From positions 96,001-160,000 of IMG/VR virus record IMGVR_UViG_3300023199_000127: 64,000 nucleotides of DNA; one strand, 5' to 3'. The notes beneath the pieces were generated by a model that was not told the DNA's origin, did no database searches, and was given only the letters and a program-made list of their open reading frames with translations. The DNA comes from a virus. A program made the translations under genes and the position numbers. Shown one piece after another: positions 14,507 to 64,000 of this stretch. Within the stretch, counting starts at the first letter, position 1. Each line of letters starts with the position of its first letter.

Positions 14507-14545
14507 GATTCACACAACAACAGGAGTCGCAAACTGGCCGAAGCC

Positions 14546-14621: not shown

Positions 14622-14633
14622 AACGGGTTGCTC

Positions 14634-14642: not shown

Positions 14643-14659
14643 CTCCCAGACTAACTAGG

Positions 14660-14942: not shown

Positions 14943-14945
14943 TGA

Positions 14946-15113
14946 CTACACCACTTCGCCTTCCATATCAGTGCACGTCATAAAGACACCCCAGTGTCCG
15001 AATTCTCGCGCCTGCTTCTTGGCCTCGGCAATAGCTTCTTCCTCAGACTCAGCAATGATTTCCACATGACCCTCGAGAGTGACGCGGAGATCAATTCCGT
15101 ATGTTTTCAGCAT
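14946..15113 (-). CDS. Small hypothetical protein (55 aa)
   Basis: Own translation: MLKTYGIDLRVTLEGHVEIIAESEEEAIAEAKK..., a common phage small-protein pattern (AESEEEA). Confidence 0.65.
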   Translation of the reverse strand: MLKTYGIDLRVTLEGHVEIIAESEEEAIAEAKKQAREFGHWGVFMTCTDMEGEVV

Positions 15114-15116
15114 GAC

Positions 15117-15551: not shown

Positions 15552-15559
15552 TGAAACTC

Positions 15560-16027: not shown

Positions 16028-16031
16028 CCTG

Positions 16032-16253
16032 CTATCCCTCTATGCACAGAGCATCAAACAATGTCATCAGATCGATAGGCGCCTTGATATAGATGATGCG
16101 AACATGACCTTATTGTTTGGCTTGCTCTATCTTGTCATCAAACCCCTGAGGATTTGCATCATCAGCATCGAACACATCCCATGCTTCAAATACCTCAGGG
16201 AAATCTTCAGTACGACGCCAAAGAATGATGCATTTCAGTATAGTGGTGGGCAT
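16032..16253 (-). pseudogene. Small ORF interrupted by an in-frame TAA
   Basis: MPTTILKCIILWRRTEDFPEVFEAW...EQAKQ*GHVRIIYIKAPIDL...IEG*. The TAA is at 16110-16112, and the frame fills the gene slot exactly. Confidence 0.45.
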
Positions 16254-40989: not shown

Positions 40990-41282
40990 GATTCAAGGAG
41001 GGATAGATCTTTGTACAAGTAAGGCATATAGTTGTCCCAATCAGGTTTCCTAATGTCCTTACGATGAACAAAATTTCCAGACTTATGCGTTGTTGGGAGG
41101 CTACAAGGAGGGTACGATCCGTAGATTCTAATCTGACGAAATGCCATGCTGTTTGTACTCAAAAACAGAACACCAAATTGTCGTATGACTATACGCACAC
41201 CCTTATTGGGAGTCCAATTAGGTAAACGCATACCCATCTCGTAACAGAGAACCTGAGGATGTTCGCTACAACGTAGAGCCAT
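40986..41282 (-). CDS. Hypothetical protein (visibly AT-richer segment)
   Basis: Coupled at both ends. Confidence 0.5.
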   Translation of the reverse strand: MALRCSEHPQVLCYEMGMRLPNWTPNKGVRIVIRQFGVLFLSTNSMAFRQIRIYGSYPPCSLPTTHKSGNFVHRKDIRKPDWDNYMPYLYKDLSLLES

Positions 41283-42634: not shown

Positions 42635-43050
42635 TGCGTTCCGTAACCAAATTCGAAAGTAGGTCCTCCTGCACACAGGATTTCCAGGTAACTAATCTTC
42701 ATGGGGCGTCCTATGCCCTTGTCTTTGAGCTTGTCGACCATCTCTTGGCCGGCTACGTGGTTAAGTGTATGAACTATCACAAAAGTATGCTCACTCACTT
42801 TAGTGTGGCCATCGACTATCTGTCGCACTACCTCCATCCCACAGTCTTCGCGTTTCGACGTTACATAAACCTCGCCACCTAGATCGTGGTCCAGGAAAAC
42901 AACGTTGAATTTTTTCTCCTGCAGCTCAGCAATAGCTTGCTGAGCAGTCTCCACAAATACCCCACGATGACCTGCACACCACTCTCTAAACATAGAGAGA
43001 CGACGATGATCATCATCAAGGACGAGAATGTCTAGTTTGTATTCCGCCAT
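42631..43050 (-). CDS. Receiver-like domain, cyclic-phosphate-processing (cREC) type
   Basis: LVLDDD.RR, FLDHDLG, GMEV and IVHTLN..AG motifs; no canonical REC lysine. Confidence 0.7.
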   Translation of the reverse strand: MAEYKLDILVLDDDHRRLSMFREWCAGHRGVFVETAQQAIAELQEKKFNVVFLDHDLGGEVYVTSKREDCGMEVVRQIVDGHTKVSEHTFVIVHTLNHVAGQEMVDKLKDKGIGRPMKISYLEILCAGGPTFEFGYGTQ

Positions 43051-43054
43051 GTAG

Positions 43055-43204
43055 TTACCACAAAATGGTGATGGAAACAGCTCGGTTCATATGTACTAGA
43101 AGAAAAGGATCCTTCAGAGTACCTGCTACCCACATCTCATAGACCCAACGCTCGACGCGGAAAATTTCTCCATTACCGCATCTAATCTCGGCGTAGTTAC
43201 TCAT
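43055..43204 (-). CDS. Small hypothetical protein (49 aa)
   Basis: Own translation MSNYAEIRCGNGEIFRVE...; ATG overlaps the upstream stop. Confidence 0.5.
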   Translation of the reverse strand: MSNYAEIRCGNGEIFRVERWVYEMWVAGTLKDPFLLVHMNRAVSITILW

Positions 43205-43755
43205 CACATATACCAGTTCTTATTGTCTCGACGAGCTAGTCCAGGGCACTCGCTCATGGGTTTACAGTTCACTTCCTTCAAGTAGAATGCACCGCGCTGT
43301 AGTGTCTTCACAATCTCTTCACGAGTGCACCAGCCCACGATGTCCACATCGGGGATATCAAGGGCTGCAAGCACAAAGATCTTTCCCTTGCTACGATTGA
43401 AGATGCCAGAGGAAACTCTACCGCTAAGCGTGTGACCATAGGAGTAATCTTCTCGAGCTGCACACGTGACAACGTGGAACACGTTGTCATTGATCTTCAT
43501 AAGCTCGTAATCAGGCCACCCACTAGCCCGAGCCTTCTGTTCAATCGGGCACCATGCTTCGTATCCTGCCAGGTCTGTCGCATGATAGTAGTAGGTGAAA
43601 GCACGTGCACACAAGTACCAGGTTTGAAACCACTTTACCAGCTCAGGCTTCTTGGTTTTCGCAGCATAGTGAGCACCAATGTTCTCCGCATCCTGTAGAA
43701 AGGTCTGCGGTAGCGGGAAACGGATCACCGGATCTCGATACACTCGGATGTACAT
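43204..43755 (-). CDS. Hypothetical protein
   Basis: ORF; start chosen at ATG 43755. Confidence 0.65.
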   Translation of the reverse strand: MYIRVYRDPVIRFPLPQTFLQDAENIGAHYAAKTKKPELVKWFQTWYLCARAFTYYYHATDLAGYEAWCPIEQKARASGWPDYELMKINDNVFHVVTCAAREDYSYGHTLSGRVSSGIFNRSKGKIFVLAALDIPDVDIVGWCTREEIVKTLQRGAFYLKEVNCKPMSECPGLARRDNKNWYM

Positions 43756-43820
43756 TGAGGGTTTGCTATTCTCCAAAACCAAAAATCGACTGCCTATTTT
43801 TTTCAGGAATTTTAGGCCTA

Positions 43821-46160
43821 TTAGCGTTTCGTCCTATGAGATTTACGCTTATACGTAGCCCGATGCTGTCTCCCTACCTTGGAATCGCCATGGAACTTGT
43901 CCCTGATACCATGCAGGGCAAAGTCATGTCCATCCTTAGGCTTCAAGGAGGATTGCTCAGTGAGACAGATAGCAGAGCAGGCTGAGTCATTCAGCTCAGC
44001 CTGCATGGCCTCACTAAGAGCAACGCGGAACTTATACATCTGACCCATCCTCGGGTCGTCCTGACCACTCAGGTTAATGTCAGTCTGAATTGTCAGTCTG
44101 CGATCACGTGCTGCGATCACAGTCACACGCTTCAGCATCTTCTGCATTGCTGCTTTGGTAGCCGGCCTGATGTTCTTGTTCGTGATCGCTCTGTTGTAGC
44201 AATCAGTAAAGAGCTTGTGTACCATCTGCTTGTTGGCATACCGAGTGTTGAACTCAGCATTGATAGCCCGAGCAACCTCCATGTCCTTGGCGATACGTTC
44301 CCGTGCTTCCTGAATGATCTGAGGATCACGCAGATCCATAAAGGGAATCCATCGCCAGGTACGAGCTGTCTTTACTCTCTCATGGGGGTTGTTCGGGTTT
44401 TTCTTCTTGAGTCTCAGCTCTCTCTTGCCAGCGATCTTGTGCCAATAGAAGGCCCAAGCCAGCTTGTTCCATAGAACAAGCGGGAACTCATTGGCAGGCA
44501 CACAGAAGCTGTAGCTCTGGGAGAAGGTGTGCTGGTCGAACCGTGTCTCCTCCTCGCCAGTGAAGGGATCATTCTGCTTTATCCAGCAACTCGCACAGTA
44601 CTCATTCAGCCGGCGAATGCAGTCAAGCCTATCCTGATCCAAGGGGACGCCAATATTCCCCTGCCAGAGCGTAGAGAAGATGAGTACACCCTGTACATCC
44701 ACCAGCTTAGCTTCGTGCAGTCCTCCTGCCTGAATCTCAGCCAGTTGATCCAGCGTTTCCTGTGCTCTGCGGCGACGTTTCTTACGTTTCTTCTTCTCTT
44801 TCTTCTCGGACTTATAGTCCTCCGCTTCCTCGTCAGTACGAATGTCCATAGCCCATTCATGAGCCAACGTGGCATAATTCGTCACATTGTCAGTAATGTT
44901 GACGAGGTGGAAGGATCCTTTAATCTCCTTCTGGACTACGAGAGAGTCTTCCTCTTCACGGACGACTCGTAGTGTGGTTTCTCGACCATCCTTGAGGACA
45001 AGAGCTCCGCGTTCGCCAACGGCGGGAGCGGAGCTGATCAGGTCCTTAGGGACAGGCTTGAATTTCGAGAGCACACGAGCGCCACGTCCTACCATCTGCA
45101 TCCACAGGCTGCGAGAGATAGTGGGACGGGCCAACATGATAGTGTTCAGACTCTTACAGTCGAAGCCTTCGGTATAGATCATGCAATTGATCAACACCTT
45201 GGACTCTGTGTGAGGACCACTATCCAGCCATTTGATGATGCGTTTGCGCTCTGCTTTATCAGAAGACCCGGAGATCATACGAACATCCAGGTTAGGGTCC
45301 CGCTTCTTGAATGCCTGGACCAGGTCGCGAGCGTGTTGCACATCACAGGCGAAGACCAGTGCTTTACCATACTGGTCCTTCTTGCTGAGATACTCGTCTG
45401 CAATCGCTAGGTTGCGTCGCGGTGTATTCAACCTAGTCAGTGCCTTGGCAGTGTAGTCGCCACCACGAACATCAAGCTTGCCGATGTTCTCGCTCGTCCT
45501 CATCTCATAGTAGATGGGACGAGCGAGATATCCCTGCCGAACAAGATCGATGAAGCCAATCTGATAGAGGATGTTGCCATCATATGCTAGAGGCCTCTCA
45601 TCAAGACGCTCTGGCGTTGCTGTCAGGCCAAGGTTGCGATGGATCAATCCCATCTTCTCAATCTTGCCAACCGTACGAATGTATTCGTTCGTATACTTGG
45701 CCTCATCCTGATGAGGCATAGCAAAATGATGGCATTCATCGATGACTACAAGCCACGTTCTGCCTGTTGCCTTATGCAGTGCCTTGAGCTGAGTTGGCAG
45801 TTTCTTGCAGGACATGATCATGCCCAGCACAACATCGCCCGTGGCATCCTTGGCTTCACTAATAGCCTCCGACTTATCCGCCAAACGAATCTTGTCGGCG
45901 CACCACGTGGTGAGTCGTTTGCCAGGAGCCACAGTGCGGAATGCTTCTGCGGCTTGCTTGATTAGCTCCTCACGATGTGCAATCCAGAGGATACCAACGT
46001 TCATCTTCTTCTGGATTCCAGAGCACAAGAAGCTAGCTGTGAAGGTCTTACCTCCACCAGTAGGGAGAACGACGACGCCCTTAGACAGGCCCTGCTTGTA
46101 GAAGCCATGCACTACAGCTTGTATAGCCTTTGTCTGATAGGGGCGTAGCTTAATCGTCAT
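43821..46160 (-). CDS. SF2 helicase (UvsW/ResIII-like) with long C-terminal extension
   Basis: LRPYQ, PTGGGKT, DECHH, LTATP.R, TEGFD and QMVGRGAR motifs. Confidence 0.93.
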   Translation of the reverse strand: MTIKLRPYQTKAIQAVVHGFYKQGLSKGVVVLPTGGGKTFTASFLCSGIQKKMNVGILWIAHREELIKQAAEAFRTVAPGKRLTTWCADKIRLADKSEAISEAKDATGDVVLGMIMSCKKLPTQLKALHKATGRTWLVVIDECHHFAMPHQDEAKYTNEYIRTVGKIEKMGLIHRNLGLTATPERLDERPLAYDGNILYQIGFIDLVRQGYLARPIYYEMRTSENIGKLDVRGGDYTAKALTRLNTPRRNLAIADEYLSKKDQYGKALVFACDVQHARDLVQAFKKRDPNLDVRMISGSSDKAERKRIIKWLDSGPHTESKVLINCMIYTEGFDCKSLNTIMLARPTISRSLWMQMVGRGARVLSKFKPVPKDLISSAPAVGERGALVLKDGRETTLRVVREEEDSLVVQKEIKGSFHLVNITDNVTNYATLAHEWAMDIRTDEEAEDYKSEKKEKKKRKKRRRRAQETLDQLAEIQAGGLHEAKLVDVQGVLIFSTLWQGNIGVPLDQDRLDCIRRLNEYCASCWIKQNDPFTGEEETRFDQHTFSQSYSFCVPANEFPLVLWNKLAWAFYWHKIAGKRELRLKKKNPNNPHERVKTARTWRWIPFMDLRDPQIIQEARERIAKDMEVARAINAEFNTRYANKQMVHKLFTDCYNRAITNKNIRPATKAAMQKMLKRVTVIAARDRRLTIQTDINLSGQDDPRMGQMYKFRVALSEAMQAELNDSACSAICLTEQSSLKPKDGHDFALHGIRDKFHGDSKVGRQHRATYKRKSHRTKR

Positions 46161-49100
46161 TCTCTTACCTCGCATCCGATCTTGGTAAGCTCGTTGCGTA
46201 TCCTCTTGGTGTTCTGCACCATGCCAATACGCATGGTGATGTAGTGTCTATTCTTGCTGGGCAAAGTTACGAAGAGCGGTACCCGGCCAGGGTATCGCTT
46301 GGATAGGTCAGTCACTTGGCGTGCCATGTCCCAATCCCAAGCGATCACACGTATGCGATGTGTCTCTACATTCTGCCCGGGTTCAACATCTTCGCGATAA
46401 CACCCAGCCAGAAGCTCGATCTCCATTGCCTCACGATCTGCCGCTCGCATCTCTCCAGCATCGGTAACGTCTACAGTATCACTAACATCGAACAAAGGTA
46501 CCGTCTTCACCTGCTTCTTTGCTTGCTGCTTATGCGCCTTGTACAGGTCCTTGAGAGCAGTAAGTAGGCCAAGACGAGAACCCCAGTCATCACAACACCC
46601 AGACTGGATGAGCTTCTCCACATCTACTTGACGTAGGGTGGAGTGGACACGCTTGACTAGGTCAGGCAGATCCTTGAAGGGTCCGCCTGCATTGCGGATC
46701 TCAACAAGCTTATCTGTAGCTGACTTAAGGCCTGCAATAGAGCGCAGGCCAAAGCGTACATTCTCACCCTCAGGAAGTGCGCCGGCACCACTCTTATTGA
46801 TATCCGGAGCTAGTACGAGGATGCTCTGCGTCATGCAGTCACGTACATACTTCTTGACTTGCTTGGAATCCTCGCCATCTACCGTGAGTAGAGCAGCCAT
46901 GTACTCCACCGGGTAGTAAGCCTTCAGATAAGCAGTCTGGTATGTCAGCTTGCCATAGCCTGCACTATGTGACTTGTTGAATCCATAGCGACCAAAGGTT
47001 TCGATCTGATTCCACACCGCATGGGCTAGGTCTTCCGGATGTCCTTGTTCTAGAGCAGCGGGGATGAACTTCTCCTTCTCCTCTGCTACAAGCTCCGGCT
47101 TCTTCTTGGCTGTAGCCTTGCGAATCTTATCAGCCTGTCCATAGGTGTAACCACAGAAGGTCTGAGCAACTGATGTGAGCTGCTCCTGATACACCATGAT
47201 TCCATAGGTCCAATTGAGAATGGGTTCGAAGCTTTCGTGCGGGTAAGTGATCGGAACACGTCCAAACTTACGCTCGATATACTCCGCCTCCATCGTCAGC
47301 CCAGTCTCTGGGCTGACGTAGTCCATCGGACCAGGTCGATGGAGCGCAAGGATAGCATAGAGATCCTCGAAGTTGCGAGGAGCTAGTCGTAGGCATATCC
47401 TGCGCATCCCATCAGACTCGATCTGGAAGACGCCTAGCGTTCTTCCAGAACAAACCAGATCATAGATCTTCGGATCATCATAAGACTCGTCCTTCTCGGC
47501 GGGAAATTCATGATGATGTCCCTGGTTGAGCGCGATGTACTCAGTACATAGTCTGATGACATCCAGATAATCGATGACCAGGAAGTCATACTTCAACAGT
47601 CCTATGTCTTCCAGGTCATCCATTGAAACTTGCGTGAATCGCGGTGCATCCCAGTCCTGAGCCTTGCGTTCACGACTACCGACCATCGTTGGCACATAAT
47701 CCTGGATGTTCTTGTCGGCAATCACAATGCCAGCAGCGTGACCAGAGATAGCACTTTTGGTCTTGTCAATCGCCTCACAAATATCAAGGAGTGCATTGCG
47801 TTCGTCCGGGTTCACCGAGACGAACGCCTTGAGGTCTTCGTTTTCCTCCCGCAACTCAGTCAGGTCGACTCGAAAGTCTCCCTGATCTTGCGGGAGCTTC
47901 TTGGTGAGCTCATTCAGCTCACCAGACTCGATGCCAAAGACCTCACCAGCCTTCTTGATAGCTGACCTGGTCTTAATGCTCTGGAATGTAGCAATCGCCG
48001 CCACATTGTCACGACCATACTTCTGGCGTACGTAGTCGATGACTTCGTGCCGGCGACTAGGTTCAAAGTCGATGTCCAAGTCAGGCATCGATACTCGCTC
48101 CGGGTTCATAAACCTCTCAAAGAGCAGGTTATGTCTGATGGGACAAAGATCTGTGATACCAAGGCAGTAGACCACAATGGATCCACCGCCGGAACCACGA
48201 CCAGGTCCTACCAGAATGCCACGTTGGCGAGCCCAGCTGCAAAAGTCAGCGACAACCAAGAAGTACTGCGCTACCCCAATCTTCTTAATGATCTCCAACT
48301 CATAGCGCACTCGAGACTTGTGCTCCTCAGTAGCTTCGGGGTACCTAGTCTTGAAACCCTCAGCCACGAGCCTGCGAAGCAGAGCATCGTGGTCTGCATA
48401 CTGTTTCAGATCGATCTCTGGAAAGCGGAACACACCAGTTTCGAACTCGAAGTCACACATGTCTGCGATGTACTTCGTGTTCGTCAGCAGGTCATCTCGC
48501 TCACCATTTGGTGTCCAGAGCTGCTGCATCTCCTCGAACCCCTTAAGGTACAAGGAAGAAAGACCAGACCGCATGCCGCCTTGTGCCTTGCCGGATTTTA
48601 CATCACGAAAAGAGTTGATTTGCAAGAGCACATCGTGGGCGGCATGCTGACTGGCGTCCAAGAAGTGGGCGTCGTTCGTAGCAATCATGGGGACCCCAAT
48701 CGCCTTAGCGATGGTGGTCGCATTATCAATGAACGCCCGCTCCATTAGGACTGCTTCTTCGCCGTGGTGCACACACTCAGGGGACATGTGTGACGTGTCC
48801 TCCATGGTATGATCCATGACCTCTACGAAGAAACGGTCCGGAAAGATCTCTGCTAGTTTGCCACCAATCTCGATGGCTTTCTGGACATCGACATCCCACT
48901 TGACCTGCTCGTAGTTACGCCCCACTCGTCTCTTAAACTCTGGGGCACAAATATGGCGGGCAAGTGGTCCATTAATGCAGGCGGAGCTACAGATTACACC
49001 CTCGCTATACTGAGCGAGGAGATCCAAGTCCAGACGAGGCTTCCGATAAAAGTACGGCGGCGTCTGCGCAATGGATAGCATGCGAGAGATGTTCTCGTAG

Positions 49101-49402
49101 CCACGCTGATTCATGGCCAGGAGAACAAGATGATCTGTGGGATTCTCTGGTGTGATCTTCTCCTGTACGGTGTCGTGGGCCATATAGGCCTCGACACCGA
49201 TGATGGGTTTGATCTCCTGCTTCTTGCACTCTCGAGCAAACTCGAGCACACCACACATCATGCCATGGTCTGTGATACCAAGAGCAGGCATACCCAGCTC
49301 TTTGGCACGAGCGACCAGGTCTTTGATGTGGTTCAGCCCATCCAACAACGAATATGTCGTGTGATTGTGCAGGCTGACAAAATCAGCAGGAGTTAGTCCC
49401 AT
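46157..49402 (-). CDS. dnaE: DNA polymerase III alpha subunit
   Basis: PHP motifs HNH.YS..DG, TDHG and TNDAH; GRGSGGGS, PDLDID, KYDFL and FNKSH. No intein. Confidence 0.97.
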   Translation of the reverse strand: MGLTPADFVSLHNHTTYSLLDGLNHIKDLVARAKELGMPALGITDHGMMCGVLEFARECKKQEIKPIIGVEAYMAHDTVQEKITPENPTDHLVLLAMNQRGYENISRMLSIAQTPPYFYRKPRLDLDLLAQYSEGVICSSACINGPLARHICAPEFKRRVGRNYEQVKWDVDVQKAIEIGGKLAEIFPDRFFVEVMDHTMEDTSHMSPECVHHGEEAVLMERAFIDNATTIAKAIGVPMIATNDAHFLDASQHAAHDVLLQINSFRDVKSGKAQGGMRSGLSSLYLKGFEEMQQLWTPNGERDDLLTNTKYIADMCDFEFETGVFRFPEIDLKQYADHDALLRRLVAEGFKTRYPEATEEHKSRVRYELEIIKKIGVAQYFLVVADFCSWARQRGILVGPGRGSGGGSIVVYCLGITDLCPIRHNLLFERFMNPERVSMPDLDIDFEPSRRHEVIDYVRQKYGRDNVAAIATFQSIKTRSAIKKAGEVFGIESGELNELTKKLPQDQGDFRVDLTELREENEDLKAFVSVNPDERNALLDICEAIDKTKSAISGHAAGIVIADKNIQDYVPTMVGSRERKAQDWDAPRFTQVSMDDLEDIGLLKYDFLVIDYLDVIRLCTEYIALNQGHHHEFPAEKDESYDDPKIYDLVCSGRTLGVFQIESDGMRRICLRLAPRNFEDLYAILALHRPGPMDYVSPETGLTMEAEYIERKFGRVPITYPHESFEPILNWTYGIMVYQEQLTSVAQTFCGYTYGQADKIRKATAKKKPELVAEEKEKFIPAALEQGHPEDLAHAVWNQIETFGRYGFNKSHSAGYGKLTYQTAYLKAYYPVEYMAALLTVDGEDSKQVKKYVRDCMTQSILVLAPDINKSGAGALPEGENVRFGLRSIAGLKSATDKLVEIRNAGGPFKDLPDLVKRVHSTLRQVDVEKLIQSGCCDDWGSRLGLLTALKDLYKAHKQQAKKQVKTVPLFDVSDTVDVTDAGEMRAADREAMEIELLAGCYREDVEPGQNVETHRIRVIAWDWDMARQVTDLSKRYPGRVPLFVTLPSKNRHYITMRIGMVQNTKRIRNELTKIGCEVRE

Positions 49403-50156: not shown

Positions 50157-51374
50157 ATGCACGACAGCATCAAATTCTGTGATCACTGCGATGAGTCCAT
50201 TCCTATGGGAATGGACCGACGCCAAAGAAAGGGCAAGACGAAGTGTGGCCGATGTGCCGATCGTCTTACACGTTTCTGGCGTTTCTGGGTTGTGCTCATG
50301 TTCATTGGTACTCTCACTGCTGCTAAAGCTGTGCACCAAGGGTCTGTGAAGCGAGACAATGTCGTGAAGCAATATGTTCACGACGGTCTTCGCTTTCTAG
50401 ACGGTCGTCTGACCCTGACCATCAAAGCTACCATTCAGGCCCTTGGTGATCTGCAGAGTCAGATGGACATACGTCTTGCAGAGCATCGCAGATTGAAGGT
50501 AGAGCTGGAAAAGGTCAAGCTCGATTTTCAAGCTGCGAAAAAGCAGATTGCTCAGCGTATTACCTCCTCAACTAACAAGGTGGATGAGGTAAAACTTCAT
50601 GTGAAGGAGCGCGTCAGCGTTCTTGAGTCCAAAGCTAAAGCGCTCGCTGCTGAGGTTGATACCATGAAACTCGTAAGCCCTGAAAAGCTTCGTCATGCGG
50701 CTAGGGCTACTGTCGGTATCAACGTTCGTGATAATCGCAGGTTGTGGAGATTCGGTAGCGGTATCATCTTCCACCGAGTCCATGAGGACAAGAAGTGGCG
50801 CTATTACGTACACACCTGCTATCACGTTATTGAAACCCATATCAATACCCGTGAGACGTCTAAGCATAACCCCGTGCTTAAGGTCACTGTCTTCGATGAT
50901 GTTGGCCGCTTGATGCCCACTGGAGAATTCGAGCTTAGAACTGAGACCAACTTCAAACAAGCACAGTCTCATCGAGGTGTGACTGACTACTCAGTGCTTA
51001 GCTTTGTGTCCGAAAAGGAACATGCAATCATCCCCTATGCTACGGACGAGGAAAGCCGGTCTATGCAGATCGGCGATCCTGTCCTTATCACTGGTGTCCT
51101 GCCCACCGAGCGACCTGCCATCTACTATGGAACTGTCGCATCACTGACCTCGTCTGCATCGGGGTGCATGGCTATTCAGGGAATGGCATGGCCGGGAATG
51201 AGCGGTGGAGCCATCTTGGACCGAAGGACGATGAAAGTCATCGGCATCATGCAGATGTTACCCTCGAGGCCGGCGCCAGGTCCCTTCAGAGCTCCTGGTG
51301 CACTGAACAACGGTCTGGGCTACATTACCCAGATCCATCGCATCGACAAACGCTTCAGGCTCAAGATCAAGTAG
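50157..51374 (+). CDS. Membrane-anchored trypsin-like serine protease with N-terminal C4 zinc finger and coiled coil
   Basis: CDHC-x18-CGRC, hydrophobic FWVVLMFIGTLTAA, heptad region, triad TCYHV / DYSVL / GMSGG. Confidence 0.85.
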   Translation: MHDSIKFCDHCDESIPMGMDRRQRKGKTKCGRCADRLTRFWRFWVVLMFIGTLTAAKAVHQGSVKRDNVVKQYVHDGLRFLDGRLTLTIKATIQALGDLQSQMDIRLAEHRRLKVELEKVKLDFQAAKKQIAQRITSSTNKVDEVKLHVKERVSVLESKAKALAAEVDTMKLVSPEKLRHAARATVGINVRDNRRLWRFGSGIIFHRVHEDKKWRYYVHTCYHVIETHINTRETSKHNPVLKVTVFDDVGRLMPTGEFELRTETNFKQAQSHRGVTDYSVLSFVSEKEHAIIPYATDEESRSMQIGDPVLITGVLPTERPAIYYGTVASLTSSASGCMAIQGMAWPGMSGGAILDRRTMKVIGIMQMLPSRPAPGPFRAPGALNNGLGYITQIHRIDKRFRLKIK

Positions 51375-53829: not shown

Positions 53830-54354
53830 CTAGAACTCTTCGAGACCGAATTCGGAAATCGCCTTCATCGCCTTATCGGCATCACCCAACATGATCTCAT
53901 CCTGGGTGGCCTGACAACGAATTTCTAGATTGGCCAGACGCTTTCTGAAGCGACTTACGATCTCTCTCTCGACCTTCCTGCCTTTCTCTTGGTATTCATC
54001 ATGACGCTTTATCAGCTCTCCAAGCAAGGCATCGAAGCCATCAAAAACATCGTTGAGCTGTAGCTGGGGCTGCCCATTATGGCCGATGTTTTTGTAGATA
54101 CGCTTCTCGATCTCCGTCTCGAATCGAATCCGAATTGCCCTTGACTGAATTGCCCTCTTGAACAGCTTTACACGCTCTTCATTGGTCAGATCTCTCCAGA
54201 GACTGGGAGCATTTGCCCTATGCTCAGCGCTGATCTTCTCTATCTCTTGATACTTTTCTGATTCGATCTTAGCGCGCTTGTCAAATGCAATATCCCTAAT
54301 GCGCTTACAAGCGTAATTCTTCTGCGTCTGGTTCATGGTCTTGATGACCTTCAA
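53830..54354 (-). CDS. Hypothetical coiled-coil protein
   Basis: Helical ORF; true start may be ATG 54336. Confidence 0.7.
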   Translation of the reverse strand: MKVIKTMNQTQKNYACKRIRDIAFDKRAKIESEKYQEIEKISAEHRANAPSLWRDLTNEERVKLFKRAIQSRAIRIRFETEIEKRIYKNIGHNGQPQLQLNDVFDGFDALLGELIKRHDEYQEKGRKVEREIVSRFRKRLANLEIRCQATQDEIMLGDADKAMKAISEFGLEEF

Positions 54355-54388
54355 AAAAATAGCCCGCAGGTCGTTAAACCTGCGGGCT
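54353..54388 (-). terminator. Intrinsic terminator after the RNAP operon
   Basis: AGCCCGCAGGT-TTAACG-ACCTGCGGGCT followed by ATTTTTTT. Confidence 0.85.
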
Positions 54389-54438: not shown

Positions 54439-54930
54439 TTAGGGGTTGTCATTTGAATGTGGTTGTGAATTGGACCAATTGAGGGAAACAAACTTCCCCC
54501 AAAAGAATTTCCAAGTCGGGTATGTGAGCGGCTCCCATCTGTCATTGAAGATCATTGGGTTTGCTCTATTGACTTGATAGAACTGATCACGTGACGCAAC
54601 CAGTCCGCCAGGATTCGTGTCCATGAGCTTGTTGTACATCTGCCTACTAATGTGGATTCCCTCGATGTGAATCCACATCACTGCTTCACCTGCAAAAATA
54701 CAGGTGAAGGTGGTTGCCTCTGCACACATGCGGCCGTGACTCATAGTCACTAGCCGATTTTGCAGGTCGTCCCAATGGATCCGATAATTGGAATCCTCTG
54801 GACAGATGTAAATGTCACCATCCAGAAAGGTCCAGTCTTTGAATTGCTGGTACTCTTTCATGTAATAGTGATCACGAATAGCTCGAATGATGTGATCTGA
54901 CTTTGCGGTGGGATCGGAGGTGCTACTCAT
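54439..54930 (-). CDS. Hypothetical protein directly downstream of the RNAP beta-like gene
   Basis: ATG 54930 overlaps the stop of the beta-like gene. Confidence 0.7.
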   Translation of the reverse strand: MSSTSDPTAKSDHIIRAIRDHYYMKEYQQFKDWTFLDGDIYICPEDSNYRIHWDDLQNRLVTMSHGRMCAEATTFTCIFAGEAVMWIHIEGIHISRQMYNKLMDTNPGGLVASRDQFYQVNRANPMIFNDRWEPLTYPTWKFFWGKFVSLNWSNSQPHSNDNP

Positions 54931-56695
54931 GAGCAAATTTCTCCGGTTCCAGCACGCTAGCGACACTGCTGAAGTACTTCACACCAGCCATGTTCTCTCG
55001 CAGGGACGCATCGACAATATCGACGAGCCCATGAGATTCCATGGCGATCAGCTTTGCTAGGTCGCGCTTCTGCCCACCCAGACGCCCGCTATTGATCGGT
55101 ACGCCGTGGTGGTTGGTTGCCTGAGCGCCAGTCTGGACAGTTGCCTGCTCTTGAGCCAGCTTATCCAGCCGAATCATGTACACAGGAGCGACAAAGGTGC
55201 ATTCGGGCAGCGGCATCTTCTTCAAGAAGAGCTGCTCCTTGGCGCCATAACCCTCTTGCACCAAAGTCTCGAAAGACGGCGCATCATGGTTGTACTTCAA
55301 GAAGAGCTGTTGACCATGAGGCATAATAAAACGCCTGCCCAACATGGAGCACTTCTTGTTTGCCATCATCTCCCACAGAAGTCCCATCGCCTTCCGGGCG
55401 ATGATGGACTCCGGGCTAATGCAGGCATCCACGGTCTTGCCCTGCACAGTGTGCGGCATCTGATGATCCGGAACCACTCGCACCACTCCCTTGGTTCCGA
55501 ATCGAGTAGTCACCTTGTCCCCAGTCTGCAGGGGGGCACGGCGAGCCAACCAGAAGCGCCACCTGAGAACAGGCTTGTCCTGCTTCATAGAGCTAGTCAC
55601 CGTGATACGGTCGACCCAACCCTCGGTAAGCAGACGCTTGGAGTAGAACTCCACGCGCTGGCCATCGACATCAGTGCCGATAGCCAACAGGGCGCCTCGT
55701 TCCACCTCGTTACCCTGCTTGACCTTCAGTTCGAGCTTGCCATATGTTTCAATGGTCTCCGTGTGATAACGAATGGCCGCAGATTGCTTGGCGCAGGATT
55801 CACTGACGACAATGCAATCCTCCCACGTATAGCTCCTGAAATTCATCAGGGCGACATTCCAATGCTGGCCATCCAGATTGTGTAGCTCACCTGAGACCCA
55901 CGGCTCATCCGGGTTCTCCATCTCCAGAGAACCTTCGAAAGAGGTTCTCAGGAGATGTGTGCGCAGATTCATATCCACCGCCAGGGCATTGGCCATGTTT
56001 GTGCCACACAAGGGCTTGTTGCTAGGGATGGCTTGTCCAGTAAGCTTGTCGATCTTCACGCCCTCGCACATGCGATAGGCGCGATTGATCTTGGAGCCCT
56101 GAGAAGTACTGGTGGGATCCAGGATGCCGAGCAGTTCCTCCGGGAAACGAAGGTCTTCCAGATCGAGGCTACTCGGGACATCAAGGTATACCAGCTCATG
56201 AAGCGACTGACGTGCCATCTTGTTCTGAGGCAAGATCGGGAAATATACGCTATCTGCGAAGATCTTCCGGATCTTGTGACGCGCAGTTTCATTGTGCGGA
56301 GGGGTACCGGTGAAGTAGAAATCCCGCAGGACATCGCTCATGGCCTTCTGCAGTTGGTCAATGACCACCTGAGCCGGCGTGCGAAAGATCCAGCGTCGCT
56401 GTCCCGGGGGCGCTTGCATATCGGGATAACACCGATGTACCACAACGCGCTCACCGTCACGAAGCATAAAGCTCCCGTCGGGGTTGAACTTCGGCAAAGC
56501 GATGAGCAGCTTGCAGCTCTTATACTGCGTGCCACCACACAACCAGCCATAGAACTGGACCTGATACCAGTTCTCCTCCGGACGCACATACTCTGCAGGG
56601 CAATCCACATCCTTAATGGCCGGTGCCTTAACGGACTGGATCGCACACTGCATTCCGTGTGGATTCAAGTAGTGTTCGAGGACTTTAGTGTCCAT
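54923..56695 (-). CDS. rpoB: Miniaturised RNA polymerase beta-like subunit (590 aa)
   Basis: DGSFMLRDGERVVV, GILDPTSTSQG, YTWEDCIVVSES, GDKVTTRFGTKG, DACISP, YMIRL and GGQK...AMESHG align in order with RpoB conserved regions. Confidence 0.9.
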   Translation of the reverse strand: MDTKVLEHYLNPHGMQCAIQSVKAPAIKDVDCPAEYVRPEENWYQVQFYGWLCGGTQYKSCKLLIALPKFNPDGSFMLRDGERVVVHRCYPDMQAPPGQRRWIFRTPAQVVIDQLQKAMSDVLRDFYFTGTPPHNETARHKIRKIFADSVYFPILPQNKMARQSLHELVYLDVPSSLDLEDLRFPEELLGILDPTSTSQGSKINRAYRMCEGVKIDKLTGQAIPSNKPLCGTNMANALAVDMNLRTHLLRTSFEGSLEMENPDEPWVSGELHNLDGQHWNVALMNFRSYTWEDCIVVSESCAKQSAAIRYHTETIETYGKLELKVKQGNEVERGALLAIGTDVDGQRVEFYSKRLLTEGWVDRITVTSSMKQDKPVLRWRFWLARRAPLQTGDKVTTRFGTKGVVRVVPDHQMPHTVQGKTVDACISPESIIARKAMGLLWEMMANKKCSMLGRRFIMPHGQQLFLKYNHDAPSFETLVQEGYGAKEQLFLKKMPLPECTFVAPVYMIRLDKLAQEQATVQTGAQATNHHGVPINSGRLGGQKRDLAKLIAMESHGLVDIVDASLRENMAGVKYFSSVASVLEPEKFAHE

Positions 56696-56701
56696 GCTTC
56701 C

Positions 56702-57034
56702 CTAACCTCCGTTGCTCTTGTTGTATTTGTTGAGCTTGGCGTAAGCTTCCTCCGTAGCTTTCCAGCCAAGAGCCTTGCACACAATGTCAATGGTCTCCAT
56801 ATCGACTGAGGGCCCACCAGCGACTTCGATAGTGACTTCCCTATCGGTCAGCTCCCGGCCTTCGTTGTCATACACCTGACAGGTGAGCTTGACCATGCCG
56901 ATATAGCGACTATTCTCGTGGACCTCATCGTACTCAATGTAGTCAAGGAGATCTTTGTGTATCTCCTTGTTCTCTTCGTTCAAGATCTCGTGCTCCCTTT
57001 CCTTGTCGAAGTGTCTATCCTGTTTGCTGCTCAC
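56702..57034 (-). CDS. Small acidic protein between the two RNAP subunit genes
   Basis: GTG start at 57034 chosen to minimise overlap. Confidence 0.6.
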   Translation of the reverse strand: MSSKQDRHFDKEREHEILNEENKEIHKDLLDYIEYDEVHENSRYIGMVKLTCQVYDNEGRELTDREVTIEVAGGPSVDMETIDIVCKALGWKATEEAYAKLNKYNKSNGG

Positions 57035-58700
57035 TGAGCACCTTCTTGAGACGCTCAGTGTGAAGCGTCCATGCCTTGTTACAGACACCAAACTTGTCAG
57101 TGTCGCCATGTCTGAGGAGTCGCACAGCCAGACCCTGGCTGTAGCGATCTCCCGAAATCATTTCGTGGATGGGGCAGTACCGCAGGGAAATCTGCGTAAG
57201 TCCCACGAATCGCTCCGGCAACATGTTGTTGAACCGCTCCATCATGTTGATGCCGAACTGCTTGCGCAACTTCTTGCGCAGCATATCGAAGATGGTATCG
57301 GCGGTCATACTACCAACTTGTCGAAGGAGACGCATGTAGGACTTCTTCTCCTTGCCTGCCGGCAAGATCTCATCCAGGACTATTCGTGCGGGATACACGA
57401 GATAGATGACCTCAATCATCGTCTTTGCTTCCCGCGGCTCAATGTCCAGTTTCTGCAGCTCGGCAAGTGCTTCCTCTACAGATGCTTGTGCCCATGCACC
57501 GGTCTGATTGAGGATCTTCAGGACATGGAAGGGGTCATATCCTGCTTCGTGCTTGGAATCCAGCAGGATTTGCTGCAGTCGCTCCGAAAGATAGTTTGCT
57601 GAACGGAGCCACGTACGATTCCAACCAGCCAGCACCTTCAGGCGATTGGAGGCTGCTCCGATGGGACCCAAAAGGGTCTTCATCTTCAGCATGTCATGAT
57701 TCTTATCGAGCGTCCTCTCCCACCACTCATCGACTTCCAGAGCCGATGCCATCTCATCGCACGCCTCATGGAGGCCTTCCTTGCCGCTTGTGCGATCGAT
57801 AGTCTTCCAGCCATCGGGACATGCATCCAGAACCTGCTCAGGTGAGATCGAGAAACCAGTTGTGACAAACCGCTCCTTACCATCCTCCTTGGCACGCTCC
57901 CAGTCAACCACTTGGCTGGGATTTTCGTACAGAGCCTGCTTGGACCAGCCGCCATGCACGAGGCAAAATTCCATCAAATGGTCCTTTGCCTCCTGCTGGC
58001 ACTCCGGCGTATCTGGAATCGGGAACCAATAGAGACAATCACCATCGCAGTCTGCACCAAGCTGCTCAAAGAGCAGCGGATGCATCTCGATGACGTCGTC
58101 AGGGCTCTTCATAGCTCTGACGATCTCCAGTGACCCGTCCCAGATAGTGGGATCGCGGCCGATCATGATGAAATCACCATGCTGCAGTTCTGCATGGTCG
58201 AAGAACTTGCCCGGCAGCGCAACGTACTCCGGATCATGGTTAGCGTTCGGGACGAGCACAGCTCGTCCAGATCGCTTCACACGTGCACCGACAATCACGT
58301 TACGAATCAGGCCATTCTTCGAGGCCAGATGGCTGATGGCTCGCTTCTGATAAGCTGACACCATCGCCTGAATGGCCTTCTCCGGCGCCTCCCCTTCCTC
58401 ATACTGAAGGAGTACCCGCGCCAACTGATTGGCAGTGAACATCAGCGGGTGCACTGTCCACAGGCCCTGGTTATTCTGGACCTCGATGGGCGGCACACGA
58501 ACCCGGTTGATCTGCCGGCCTGCGTAATCCGCTACTGCCACTGGCAGCTGGATCCACGCACCGTTCTTACGGATCTTCGGATCCAGAACGGTACCATCGA
58601 TGTTCTGCACCTTCTCCGGATCAATGATCGGAGGTAGGTCATCGGTGAGGACGGGCCTACCGTCCACATTGGTTTCGGCGATGATTACCGGATGAATCAC
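57015..58700 (-). CDS. rpoC: Miniaturised RNA polymerase beta-prime-like subunit (561 aa)
   Basis: KNGLIR...GARVKRSGRAV, GRDPTI, MHPL....GADCDGD; later bridge-helix-like and trigger-loop-like segments. Confidence 0.9.
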   Translation of the reverse strand: MIHPVIIAETNVDGRPVLTDDLPPIIDPEKVQNIDGTVLDPKIRKNGAWIQLPVAVADYAGRQINRVRVPPIEVQNNQGLWTVHPLMFTANQLARVLLQYEEGEAPEKAIQAMVSAYQKRAISHLASKNGLIRNVIVGARVKRSGRAVLVPNANHDPEYVALPGKFFDHAELQHGDFIMIGRDPTIWDGSLEIVRAMKSPDDVIEMHPLLFEQLGADCDGDCLYWFPIPDTPECQQEAKDHLMEFCLVHGGWSKQALYENPSQVVDWERAKEDGKERFVTTGFSISPEQVLDACPDGWKTIDRTSGKEGLHEACDEMASALEVDEWWERTLDKNHDMLKMKTLLGPIGAASNRLKVLAGWNRTWLRSANYLSERLQQILLDSKHEAGYDPFHVLKILNQTGAWAQASVEEALAELQKLDIEPREAKTMIEVIYLVYPARIVLDEILPAGKEKKSYMRLLRQVGSMTADTIFDMLRKKLRKQFGINMMERFNNMLPERFVGLTQISLRYCPIHEMISGDRYSQGLAVRLLRHGDTDKFGVCNKAWTLHTERLKKVLSEQQTG

Positions 58701-58945
58701 GCCGCACCTCCGACGGACTGCAGGACCTTGCTACGCTGCAACAAAAGCAGCTTGTGCTGGTCCTTGGCATCGGACTGCTCGATCACGGCCACGAAGGCTC
58801 GGAAGATCCACTTGAATCCGAGGACATTCCACACCAGGTAGAACAAGGTGTAGGCGCCACGGAAGAGCAGCTTTTCCAAACCTTCAATGAGTGCAAGGAC
58901 GACATCCAGACATGCGTTCATGGACTTCTTACTCCTGTTGGTCAT
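58697..58945 (-). CDS. Small hydrophobic hypothetical protein
   Basis: Coupled by GTGA overlap to the beta-prime gene. Confidence 0.6.
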   Translation of the reverse strand: MTNRSKKSMNACLDVVLALIEGLEKLLFRGAYTLFYLVWNVLGFKWIFRAFVAVIEQSDAKDQHKLLLLQRSKVLQSVGGAA

Positions 58946-59213
58946 AGCTTCCCTTCGATTCCCAATACCGCTGACAAACGGATTTGAGGAATACTATCAA
59001 ATCTGCGTGGGATGAAAACACCGTGTCACCGGTGATCATTACTCCACCTAAGGCTTGGTCCGACATAATGCGGACCTGAAGTTGGGTGTCACCAATCTCA
59101 TCAAGCATCGTGAGGAGACTGGCAGGTGTATCGCGAGTGAACTGCGTGGTTTGGCCCTCGGCCAACCACGTGCCATCGCTAGGAGGTTTCGGAGGCAGCG
59201 AACTCTTCGACAT
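58929..59213 (-). CDS. Hypothetical protein
   Basis: Overlapping ORF in run. Confidence 0.55.
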   Translation of the reverse strand: MSKSSLPPKPPSDGTWLAEGQTTQFTRDTPASLLTMLDEIGDTQLQVRIMSDQALGGVMITGDTVFSSHADLIVFLKSVCQRYWESKGSYDQQE

Positions 59214-59562
59214 CCTCGTCCACTTCCTCGATCGGCTCGTCGTAATTCTCGATGGTGCCGACGAGGAACGGGATGATGACGAGCAGCTGCGCTGCTCCCG
59301 GCCCGCGTGACGACTGGGTCATCCGATACACCGTACCGCCCATATTCAGGCTCACAATCGGCTGACCACGATCTGTGTACCGCTTCTTGATGCGGTATCC
59401 GGAGATGATGCGCTCGTCGTCATCGGAGAGGAGAAACTGAAATCCCTCTTCGAGGACGCGCTTCACATGTATATCGTCGACTTGTCCGCCTCCGATTTCG
59501 GCGACAAAATCGGAGCCGCCATGGAATACGCGTCCCGTGGCGGCTTGTCTTTGCTTGCCCAT
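59179..59562 (-). CDS. Hypothetical protein
   Basis: Start at ATG 59562 after GGAGG. Confidence 0.65.
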   Translation of the reverse strand: MGKQRQAATGRVFHGGSDFVAEIGGGQVDDIHVKRVLEEGFQFLLSDDDERIISGYRIKKRYTDRGQPIVSLNMGGTVYRMTQSSRGPGAAQLLVIIPFLVGTIENYDEPIEEVDEDVEEFAASETS

Positions 59563-61952: not shown

Positions 61953-63092
61953 TTACCTGCTTGCTTCTCTGCACGGTTTTCCTCTTTCTTTAAGCCTATT
62001 GGCGATGGCCTTGTAGATCTGTTCGGTGGTGTCTTTCTGATCGAACATTGAGAAGAGCATGCCGCGGACCTCCGCGGGTGCTCTATCCTGTACAGCAAGA
62101 GCAAACGCCTTCCTGTTACCCTTTAGGTGGAGTAGGTCGCGCCACAAAGAGTCCACCAGTTCCCGGATTTCCCAGAATGCCAGGTTCAACTGGCCGATTA
62201 AATCGTCGAACTCATCCACCCTGTGGTCAGGAAGGCCCTCTCTGAGCTCCTGGACGAGTGTTTGCAGGTCGCCGGCCGGTGAGATACCCTCGTCCAGATG
62301 ACGCGTCCTGAGGGCCCCCAGGAGCCTCTTGAAGGTCACCTCGTCGACCAGCCTATGCATTTCCACATAGTCGGGGCTCTTAATCTTTACGCGGAGACCA
62401 TTGTCCCAGCGCACGACATAGCCCTCATGGTTCTCTCGGAAGGTGGGATTGGTCAGGTCGTGGATGTCGTACAGCTCTGGAAGTCGCATGCCCAGTCTGC
62501 GTGCATACCGCTTCAAGACGCTCTGAGAGACCTCGAGTCCACTACGGGTATGGATGACCCCAAGGAGCACCAGCTCCTTGCGGTCCTTGTAATCCACCAC
62601 AATACGGTTCTCAGGGTAAATGATCTCGGTCAGTATGGTCACATTCTTGGGAATTTCGTCGAAGTTGTAACGGCGCCGGCCGAAGTCCTGTGCCCACTCC
62701 GCCTGTTCACTAGTGAAGCTGCCACGGGTGCTACAGTACCAGTCTCCCTCCCAGTTCCACCAGATCCCCAAGCTACCGTCTATCTTCTCCTCGGCTTGAT
62801 AGCCGATGAGCCACGGGTCAGGAAAGTTCTCTGGTGAAGAGACGGGCATCTCGCCAAGATTAAAGAACTTACGGAAGGGACGAGCAATCAGCTTGTCCCC
62901 ATGAGAGTGGAGGATCAGACCACGGGATTGAGTAGTGACATCATCCCATGCACGTTGAAACGCGCACTCGTTGGTGTAGTTGTAAAGCGTGAGAGGAAAA
63001 ATCGGGTGCGACTGCTTGCTAATAAGACCGCGCTCGATATATTCGTCGAGCTCAATCCTAAGCGGTGCACGATCTGTCTCAAACTCAATCAC
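61953..63092 (-). CDS. T4 Rnl1-type RNA ligase
   Basis: LYNY, RGLI, RPFRKFFN, EKIDGSLG, STRGSF, EGYVV and RVKIK..Y motifs. Confidence 0.93.
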   Translation of the reverse strand: MIEFETDRAPLRIELDEYIERGLISKQSHPIFPLTLYNYTNECAFQRAWDDVTTQSRGLILHSHGDKLIARPFRKFFNLGEMPVSSPENFPDPWLIGYQAEEKIDGSLGIWWNWEGDWYCSTRGSFTSEQAEWAQDFGRRRYNFDEIPKNVTILTEIIYPENRIVVDYKDRKELVLLGVIHTRSGLEVSQSVLKRYARRLGMRLPELYDIHDLTNPTFRENHEGYVVRWDNGLRVKIKSPDYVEMHRLVDEVTFKRLLGALRTRHLDEGISPAGDLQTLVQELREGLPDHRVDEFDDLIGQLNLAFWEIRELVDSLWRDLLHLKGNRKAFALAVQDRAPAEVRGMLFSMFDQKDTTEQIYKAIANRLKERGKPCREASR

Positions 63093-64000
63093 CGTCTGAC
63101 CTCCACAGTATCGAAGCCCTCCTTAACGAGCTTCTCTCTGATCTGCTCGTCAGTGATCCTGGCCATCTGGCCACCCAGACTGGTGCACAGGTTACCGTGC
63201 ATCTGCTTGATGACACGCTCCGGGACCTTGCGCTCGCGCAGCTCATTCTGGTCGAGCGCCACCTCAACCGGATGGGCAAATACAACAGCCGTGAACTTCA
63301 GACCTTCGATCTGGCTGTTGTACCAGTCCATAGTGGACTTGCGATGATGTGCCACACAATTCGTCTGGTCAAGGATAGGGATGTCTCCACGACCGATCGT
63401 CGCAAGCGCCAGCTTGCGAACGATCTGCGTTACAACCTCCTCCTGATGCTCCAGGTACGAACCGAGCTGCCAACGAACCTCGTCCCTGCAGATACGAGTA
63501 TAGACATGGCTATCGCCATTATCATTACTCTCAGCAATCTCCTTGGCCCAGGTCGTCTTACCAACGCCCGGAGGACCAAGTGTCATGCAGATTCTGCCAG
63601 GACGAGGGTCACAAGAGCTCATAAGACTAAAGGCCTTATGGATCATATCCTCAGACACTTCCATCTCTGCTCTGCCACCACGATCACACTTATTCAGATC
63701 CTGCAGGTCCTTGAACCACGGGTGCTCCTCAAGCTCCTTGCGCTTCTGCTTCTTCATCTGGCTATTCTCATAGAAGAAGTAGCGCATATGATTCGCGACC
63801 AACCAGTGAACCTTGCAAGTCACGTCACTGCAGATCATCTTGGCGCCACGATAAGCGTGCTCACGCCACTTCTGACCGTCGGTAGTATTCTTTCCGACAT
63901 CATGCAGAAGGGCGGCCATCTGAAACCCCCAGTCATTGGTACGTCTCAGAGCTGCCAGGAGCCATGTCTGATAGAGATGGCTCATGACATTGGGCTCCGG
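63089..64000 (-). CDS. HD-domain phosphoesterase fused to polynucleotide kinase (HD-Pnk), 5' end outside the window
   Basis: Frame is open to the window edge (PEPNVMSH); AALLHDVGK, GPPGVGKTT, CRDEVR, DQTN and R..P..VI..M motifs. Confidence 0.88.
   Translation of the reverse strand, partial: PEPNVMSHLYQTWLLAALRRTNDWGFQMAALLHDVGKNTTDGQKWREHAYRGAKMICSDVTCKVHWLVANHMRYFFYENSQMKKQKRKELEEHPWFKDLQDLNKCDRGGRAEMEVSEDMIHKAFSLMSSCDPRPGRICMTLGPPGVGKTTWAKEIAESNDNGDSHVYTRICRDEVRWQLGSYLEHQEEVVTQIVRKLALATIGRGDIPILDQTNCVAHHRKSTMDWYNSQIEGLKFTAVVFAHPVEVALDQNELRERKVPERVIKQMHGNLCTSLGGQMARITDEQIREKLVKEGFDTVEVRR

Follow-up and report, generated by a model that had tools for sequence, protein, structure and literature searches.

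RNA polymerase-like genes in the window

The DNA analysed here (the window; 64,000 nt) covers bases 96001–160000 of IMGVR_UViG_3300023199_000127, a linear IMG/VR virus record of 180,792 bp with a CheckV completeness of 93%. Its − strand carries two adjacent open reading frames (ORFs) of 561 and 590 aa (Table 1) with similarity to the β′ and β subunits of cellular RNA polymerase (RNAP). We conclude, at a probability that we put near 80%, that the pair codes for the catalytic core of a non-virion, DNA-dependent RNAP of the multisubunit class made by the phage, with subunits that have ~40% of the bacterial size and span the full subunit fold. An initial annotation, made without database searches, had reported RpoB motifs in the 590-aa ORF and RpoC motifs in the 561-aa ORF; both ORFs exist exactly as described, and their resemblance to RNAP subunits is far beyond chance.

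Genes of the + strand up to ~92.5 kb of the record form a structural and packaging arm, beyond which genes lie on the − strand. The latter arm, devoted to nucleotide metabolism and replication, carries the β′/β pair. The starts of both genes are preceded by GGAGG ribosome-binding sites located 6–9 nt upstream.

The β′-like protein

The 561-aa protein matched the Pfam family RNA_pol_Rpb1_2 slightly under the gathering score (E = 1e-4, 23 bits) and phrog_2987 with E = 3.5e-11. Searches of the PDB with family profiles, a check that the initial annotation had proposed, retrieved bacterial β′ (E = 3.6e-15) for this protein and bacterial β (E = 2.7e-19) for its partner. Alignment of β′ with Escherichia coli RpoC by hhalign gave a probability of 97% across the barrel. 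The metal loop reads GADCDGD (residues 215–221), as the initial annotation had it, with all three catalytic Asp kept; D217, D219, G220 and D221 are invariant in the family alignment. Other recognizable motifs are SGR (144–146), GRDPTIW (181–187) and HPL (207–209). The metal loop, SGR and GRDPTIW align to Thermus and E. coli β′, and all four motifs are borne by a double-psi β-barrel (DPBB; residues ~140–240) in which R-x-SGR and R-x-P motifs precede the DxDxD loop.

The AlphaFold2 model of β′, computed with the family alignment as input, has a predicted local distance difference test score (pLDDT) of 89.4 and a predicted template modelling score (pTM) of 0.80. In the model, a clamp-core sheet lacking a Zn ribbon is formed by residues 1–82, helices 85–125 make a hairpin in the clamp-helices position and the C-terminus is helical. 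A 36-residue helix (323–358) is a candidate for the bridge helix, and the segment LLDSKH within residues 362–397 is a candidate for the trigger loop. Since the sequence contains no Cys clusters, both Zn sites are missing from β′.

The β-like protein

The 590-aa protein scored above the gathering score of the Pfam family RNA_pol_Rpb2_6 (E = 8.8e-22, 78 bits), and its family profile matched chain 7s00_C of the phage AR9 enzyme (E = 1.5e-16) in addition to bacterial β. With E. coli RpoB, hhalign gave a probability of 93.7% across the barrel. The lysines and the ED motif that the initial annotation reported as kept are strongly conserved in the family: GDK (392–394), K402 and G403 are invariant, as is D293 of the ED pair, while E292 is conserved in at least 90% of sequences. 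The sequence GGQKRD is found at 540–545. The reading of DKL at the HHL position agrees with hhalign, which placed LDKLA opposite LNHLV of E. coli.

The AlphaFold2 model of β (pLDDT 83.1, pTM 0.76) starts with a β1/protrusion-like module (1–157), which aligned with isolated β1 (protrusion) domains with Z-scores (Z) of 7.3 and 6.6. The flap is minimal, an all-β sandwich-barrel hybrid motif (SBHM) core of ~80 aa (307–386) that matched the flap domains of E. coli and Thermus (Z 7.3 and 7.0); the spacing between ED and GDK is ~100 aa. The β-type DPBB is recognizable by the GDK…KG lysines, the ED pair and the SBHM flap insert.

Structural comparison with whole cellular subunits

Both models are collinear with entire cellular subunits. 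Residues 1–521 of the β model aligned with residues 50–1061 of Pol II Rpb2 (Z 26.8, 497 residues aligned), and residues 1–526 with residues 40–1311 of Xanthomonas β (Z 21.9). For the second-largest subunits of the plastid, vaccinia, Pol I, African swine fever virus and Xanthomonas enzymes, Z ranged from 21.9 to 23.8 over stretches of the model from 1–512 to 1–526; a Foldseek comparison with Thermus β gave E = 6e-28 and TMq = 0.6. Similarly, residues 1–547 of the β′ model aligned with residues 40–1462 of Rpb1 (Z 18.3), residues 1–359 with residues 26–828 of archaeal A′ (Z 17.6) and the entire model with the largest subunits of Pol I, Pol II and vaccinia (Z 17.2–17.6). The match to β′ of Mycobacterium tuberculosis had Z 14.1 with 438 residues aligned; cyanobacterial RpoC2 matched residues 283–548 only. 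In all, about 490 residues of β and ~400–450 residues of β′ align with cellular subunits.

Judged by sequence or alignment, the pair clearly lacks the β2 lobe, Zn sites and large insertions. A reduced clamp is kept in the β′ model, together with the hairpin at the clamp-helices position, and an archaeal clamp-domain construct aligned with this model with Z 7.8. The initial annotation had assumed that the lobes and most of the clamp were lost; for the β2 lobe this is correct, while a loss of most of the clamp is not what the comparison showed. Its proposal of an enzyme cut to under half the cellular size is in agreement with the full-span models.

A different picture was obtained with the non-virion RNAPs of phages AR9 (PDB 7S00) and phiKZ (PDB 7OGP), in which β and β′ are each split into N- and C-terminal polypeptides, whereas here there is one chain per subunit. 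Chains of these enzymes cover only residues 227–522 of the β model (Z 22.8 for AR9 βC, Z 20.4 for phiKZ) and residues 1–262 (or 73–262) of the β′ model (Z 12.3 for AR9 β′-N). Because our models align over nearly their full length and the AR9/phiKZ fragments match parts only, the two proteins are complete subunits in miniature and not parts of a split enzyme. To judge from the models, each of them holds the equivalents of both phiKZ/AR9 halves in less than half the residues.

A conserved family of compact subunits

The family was delineated by a word-indexed search of clusters at 90% identity and by a separate exhaustive profile search of 1.84 billion cluster representatives. The word-indexed search found 31 further β′-like clusters of 338–584 aa (all but one, of 338 aa, have at least 494 aa) and 17 further β-like clusters of 526–626 aa. 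All these clusters are without a name and are 30–62% identical to the queries; for the nearest relatives (~55–62% identity) synonymous sites are saturated. The profile search with β′ produced 84 clusters (50% identity) at E ≤ 1e-30, with a median length of 538 aa and a range of 428–618 aa, plus one intein-bearing member of 859 aa.

The sequence DxDGD is present in every full-length member of the compact family. Between the first two Asp, C is the most frequent residue, followed by F, and S, H, N, Y, A and R are observed too; both NADFDGD and NADCDGD occur. Since the middle residue varies across the family, DCDGD is a trait of a sub-lineage. Thus, ADCDGD, which the initial annotation had highlighted, is found in the window protein but is not family-wide, and it has a precedent in LEF-9 of Autographa californica multiple nucleopolyhedrovirus (AcMNPV), which reads NTDCDGD (PMC3280521). 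In baculovirus LEF-9, a Cys in the metal loop is compatible with activity.

Conservation of the catalytic motifs is 0.91–1.0 versus an overall mean of 0.36 for β′ and 0.46 for β. The 859-aa member (P0069, from a metagenome) is a compact β′ homologue whose catalytic metal loop is interrupted by the intein. The motif conservation and the location of this intein argue for a working active centre, and catalytic competence of the pair is strongly implied.

These observations bear on the suggestion that the pair is a relic in decay, or one part of a split enzyme with further fragments encoded elsewhere. The small size of the proteins, the single Pfam domain recognized in each and the 93% completeness of the record could be taken in its favour, but the frames are intact with Shine–Dalgarno (SD) sites, the fold is full-span and the length is uniform over at least 84 divergent clusters with invariant active-site residues. 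The initial annotation had itself named missing fragments and relaxed selection as what would speak against a minimal enzyme; the conserved motifs and the catalytic-loop intein argue against a relic, and searches of all ORFs of the 93%-complete genome with hidden Markov models (HMMs) of the β and β′ families found no paralogue and no extra fragment. The suggestion is thus largely refuted, and we give it hardly any weight. As both proteins span the entire fold and no further RNAP fragments were found in the genome, the enzyme is minimal rather than split.

Search for α, ω and sigma

Six-frame searches of the genome detected no Rpb1_5, no α (RNA_pol_L, PF01193) and no ω (PF01192), while the controls were positive. 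The initial annotation had noticed no α, ω or sigma homologue in the window; for α and ω this statement extends to the whole 93%-complete record, but a sigma-70-family gene lies outside the window (Table 1). This gene stands at the start of the structural (+) arm, and the genome has no second sigma gene. Its product is ~31–35% identical to the best tblastn matches among those listed, which include cellular RpoS and phage-encoded sigma genes.

It could be argued that the miniature core is part of a hybrid enzyme that borrows the phage sigma and/or host α and ω. The sigma protein has regions 1.2, 2 and 4, the predicted hairpin of β′ would lie where the clamp helices, to which sigma region 2 binds, are found, and in virions of Salmonella phage Arash β, β′ and sigma were all detected (PMC10585845). 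We consider such a hybrid improbable, however. The complete IMG/VR relative of 192,957 bp (with direct terminal repeats), the one relative searched for sigma, has the same β′/β pair but gave no Sigma70_r2 match, so sigma is not an obligatory partner of the family. Furthermore, the sigma protein looks built for a bacterial RNAP, a flap-tip helix is not evident in the model of the ~80-aa all-β flap and the surfaces that bind α in bacteria appear to be largely deleted. The phage sigma may rather be a device that redirects the host RNAP.

A protein of 1631 aa encoded in the virion block (genome positions 40192–45087, + strand) is a tentative candidate for a second, single-chain RNAP. It had no match in PHROG, PDB, Atlas or phage tblastn searches, and it showed no similarity to fused β–β′ proteins; the hints found were sub-threshold (β′ HMM at aa 950–1030, E = 0.38; a collinear …RDLDFD at ~1110–1115).

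The operon and its neighbours

Six loci were compared: the window, four metagenome contigs of 55–142 kb and one IMG/VR relative. The order β′→β, with the genes adjacent and usually overlapping, was observed in 6/6 loci. In the window, a 319-bp gap between the two genes is filled by a lineage-specific small ORF, which is absent from loci L003, L005, L008 and L013, whose β′ and β genes are directly adjacent or overlap; a weak similarity links the ORF to the C-terminal end of an insert of 275 aa carried by the closest relative, L007.

Table 1. Features of the RNAP operon and related genes (positions in the window unless marked as genome positions)
Feature	Position	Strand	Remarks
β-like catalytic subunit, 590 aa (P0001)	54923–56695	−	ATG start; ORF, Pfam, motifs, AlphaFold model
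β′-like catalytic subunit, 561 aa (P0002)	57015–58700	−	GTG start; ORF, Pfam/PHROG, motifs, AlphaFold model
Lineage-specific small ORF	56702–56983	−	~93 aa from TTG, GGGAG upstream; maximal ORF to 57109
82-aa hydrophobic ORF	58697–58945	−	Stop overlaps β′ start (GTGA)
94-aa ORF in operon	58929–59213	−	Relatives not found
~127-aa protein, acidic C-terminal tail (P0200)	59179–59562	−	GTG-extendable to 59628
175-aa ORF	54439–54966	−	Overlaps β 3′ end; last gene ahead of terminator; relatives not found
Intrinsic-terminator-like hairpin	54361–54388	−	12 pairs (8 G-C), then T run; consensus scan only
DnaE-type Pol III alpha, full-length (PHP, NTPase, finger, HHH domains)	46157–49402	−	Phage replicase
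Sigma-70-family protein, 250 aa	genome 5453–6205, outside window	+	Regions 1.2, 2, 4; RpoD/RpoS-like

A gene for an acidic-tailed protein of ~127–132 aa is located directly or nearly upstream of β′ in 6/6 loci and overlaps the β′ start in three of them (L003, L008 and L013). Its family comprises 13 clusters of uniform length (123–132 aa), several of which come from contigs whose recorded lengths equal those of contigs bearing β′. The protein had no match in Pfam, PDB or Atlas and at best E = 0.006 in PHROG. A complex prediction for β′, residues 281–590 of β and this protein as partner gave a score of 0.00, which speaks neither for nor against binding. Downstream of this gene, the GTGA stop/start overlap suggests translational coupling of the 82-aa ORF to β′; this ORF is kept in L007 and, weakly, in L005.

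On the basis of this arrangement, the core may need one or more small phage subunits of the same operon, i.e. the acidic-tailed protein and possibly the product of the 82-aa ORF, for assembly or promoter recognition. Such a requirement overlaps with the proposed catalytic core and has, in our estimate, slightly less than an even chance. The conserved position and uniform length of the acidic-tailed protein and the coupling of the 82-aa ORF point to it, and gp68 of phiKZ and gp226 of AR9 would be parallels. On the other hand, the acidic-tailed protein is without homology to RNAP subunits or known families, the 82-aa and 94-aa ORFs are not kept beyond close relatives and gene neighbours often do not interact. 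If there is an accessory or specificity subunit, the acidic-tailed protein is the leading candidate and, because its gene is conserved upstream of β′, the term two-subunit is used here for the catalytic core only and is not proven for the holoenzyme.

Other neighbours of the pair encode an RNase H, a HIRAN protein, a RecA-like ATPase, a superfamily 2 (SF2) helicase, a glycosyltransferase and a uracil-DNA glycosylase. A DnaE-type polymerase is encoded 3′ of the pair in 4/6 loci and was not found within the fetched stretch of the other two. Such conserved surroundings (RNase H, HIRAN, RecA-like, DnaE and SF2 helicase genes) would also suit a replication-linked polymerase making primers or R-loops at an origin for the DnaE-type replicase, to be processed by the neighbouring RNase H. 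This role appears highly improbable to us: transcription and replication genes are routinely mixed in early and middle modules of phages, and the retention of the entire elongation apparatus (the cleft and the candidates for the bridge helix and trigger loop) exceeds the needs of priming.

The operon likely ends at the strong terminator-like hairpin. Just past it lies a 174-aa ORF (53830–54354, − strand); the closest relative has a counterpart of 28% identity, and among PHROGs the ORF weakly matched a ‘transcriptional regulator’ family (E = 1.2e-3). A sigma-70 consensus scan around the operon gave nothing above shuffled sequences. Repeated words of the genome were tried as a promoter motif and rejected, as they came from a gene for a pentapeptide-repeat protein and from a tandem repeat with a 22-bp unit. 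The former (genome positions 170060–170614, − strand, outside the window) has a 15-nt periodic GCCGACCTG… repeat; the latter, with the unit TAGGTAGCTGTCCATAGAGCAC present in at least four tandem copies, is intergenic at genome positions ~175250–175330, also outside the window, and may represent iterons or an origin.

Comparison with known RNAPs

The best sequence matches of the two proteins are bacterial and plastid RpoB and RpoC, which have the same catalytic residues and align over the full span of the fold. Scores against the NCBIfam equivalogs of RpoB and RpoC are far below the cut-offs (55.2 bits versus 896, and 14–15 bits versus ~960–1117). Compared with bacterial RpoB and RpoC, the proteins are of ~40% size, have no Zn sites and no β2 lobe and only a minimal flap; the gene order is reversed as well, with β′ ahead of β instead of rpoB–rpoC.

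The AR9 and phiKZ enzymes are, like the one proposed here, phage-encoded two-barrel RNAPs of the multisubunit class without α or ω. They use a fifth, phage-specific, non-sigma specificity subunit (gp226 in AR9, gp68 in phiKZ); the acidic-tailed neighbour of β′ showed no detectable similarity to any solved chain.

The mReC lineage consists of tailed phages with separate β and β′ genes that form a deep-branching viral clade; the survey that defined it required subunits of at least 800 aa, the motif NADxDGD and good COG0085 and COG0086 scores (PMC7481178). The phage studied here resembles mReC phages in having separate β and β′ genes and a large terminase subunit (TerL) matching Pfam PF03237. By the selection criteria of the survey it is set apart, since 590 and 561 aa are below the minimal length and GADCDGD does not fit the motif. 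Owing to the 800-aa minimum, mReC members cannot share such a size, and the possibility raised in the initial annotation, that already described mReC proteins match the pair in size, is thereby settled.

Single-chain phage RNAPs, too, are two-barrel enzymes of reduced size. In single-chain RNAPs (YonO, crAss gp66, P23-45 gp64/gp96 and QDE-1) both DPBBs reside in one polypeptide, whereas here they are encoded by two ORFs with their own SD sites. P23-45 gp96, P74-26 gp62 and QDE-1 aligned with the β′ model with Z of 8.5–10.0, more weakly than the multisubunit enzymes. Two metagenomic proteins, P0135 and P0136 (1583 and 1662 aa), are single-chain fusions of β and β′ with many Pfam RNAP domains; these fused proteins made up the next tier of profile matches after the compact family (E ~1e-22).

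Another very small β′ homologue is LEF-9 of baculoviruses and nudiviruses; in AcMNPV it has the same Cys variant of the metal loop. The LEF-9/LEF-8 RNAP of baculoviruses is an insect-virus enzyme of four subunits that include capping functions. Nudivirus LEF-9 was a weak Foldseek match (E = 1.9e-6), which does not show a specific affinity.

Searches of 50,697 phage records (INPHARED) with both proteins by megablast and tblastn returned nothing. Of two distant family members compared with the same records, one had no match and the other matched nothing but the barrel of a protein (1527 aa) found in Vibrio phages D69, D181 and D148. A compact viral homologue was not found in BFVD by Foldseek either; taken together, PHROGs v4, NCBIfam, BFVD and the phage records yielded partial, barrel-limited matches or none. 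In the searchable literature, which covers split, fused and single-chain phage RNAPs, a full-span two-gene enzyme of such size is undescribed. The pair represents a new lineage of phage RNAPs, uncultured and known from metagenomes only, widespread, and with a uniquely compact, unsplit architecture. The family may hold the smallest natural transcription enzyme of the β/β′ type.

Proposed mode of action

In the enzyme that we envisage, two DPBBs would pack face to face, with the catalytic Mg2+ held by the Asp triad of β′ (D217, D219 and D221) and the RNA 3′ end and incoming nucleoside triphosphate (NTP) contacted by K394 and K402 of β. Helix 323–358 of β′ would act as the bridge helix and the following LLDSKH segment as the trigger loop, and the cleft would be closed by the reduced clamp and the β1 protrusion. 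The β2 lobe, the Zn sites, the jaw, lineage-specific insertions and most of the flap would have been lost. Assembly would proceed without an α dimer or ω, possibly helped by co-translation from the tightly coupled operon, whose order is small ORFs, β′, β, the 175-aa ORF and the terminator. Promoters are probably chosen with the help of a small factor made by the phage, for which the acidic-tailed protein is the best candidate, and not by a canonical sigma. The miniature enzyme could then transcribe one temporal class of phage genes, while the RpoD/RpoS-like sigma would direct the host RNAP to another class.

Several points weigh against the proposed catalytic core. The β′/β interface is deduced from homology, and the C-terminal tail of β (536–571) was modelled with low confidence. 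The ‘DDKxHAR’ segment of β is replaced by LDKLAQEQ, so that the class of residue contacting the initiating NTP in bacterial enzymes is lost. Analysis of repeated words and of intergenic k-mer enrichment over the whole genome revealed no convincing shared promoter motif. The phage's own sigma, or host α or ω, could in principle join the enzyme, and since the record is linear and ~93% complete, some gene may be missing. Finally, the stretch is contained in four DNA runs of one study, with no RNA run among those listed.

A bolder version of the proposal is a self-sufficient heterodimer of ~129 kDa, the smallest natural β/β′ RNAP, working without α, ω or a factor of the sigma/TFB type and with at most the ~14-kDa acidic-tailed protein for promoter recognition; it would represent a deep viral lineage so far without a name, separate from those of mReC, phiKZ/AR9 and the single-chain RNAPs. 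We think this possible but rather unlikely. If true, the structural minimum of the universal transcription enzyme could be defined experimentally.

Cellular RNAPs are large enzymes with heavy decoration, and it has long been asked how much of their mass accurate, processive and promoter-specific transcription requires; the question also bears on the enzyme that preceded the last universal common ancestor. Should the proposed catalytic core prove correct, a natural enzyme of 1151 residues with complete β/β′ topology, lacking α, ω and Zn sites, would be a ready-made minimal model, of possible use in structural, single-molecule and evolutionary work, and synthetic biology could gain a small orthogonal module for transcription. 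The family also shows that an entire lineage of phage RNAPs was missed by surveys that, like the one defining mReC, apply cut-offs for length and score, and it adds another route by which large phages become independent of host transcription.

Other features of the genome

The TerL of this phage is of the T4 type (Terminase_6N); its gene, at genome positions 12937–16122 (+ strand, outside the window), is split by an intein with Hint and Intein_splicing domains. Elsewhere in the window, a gene for an RNA ligase of the T4 Rnl1 type (61953–63092, − strand) adjoins one for a protein with HD and P-loop kinase (AAA_33) domains (63089–63985, − strand); the two look like the RNA-repair pair used by phages against anticodon nucleases. 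A trypsin-like peptidase of 405 aa (50157–51374) is encoded on the + strand, opposite to its surroundings within the − strand arm.

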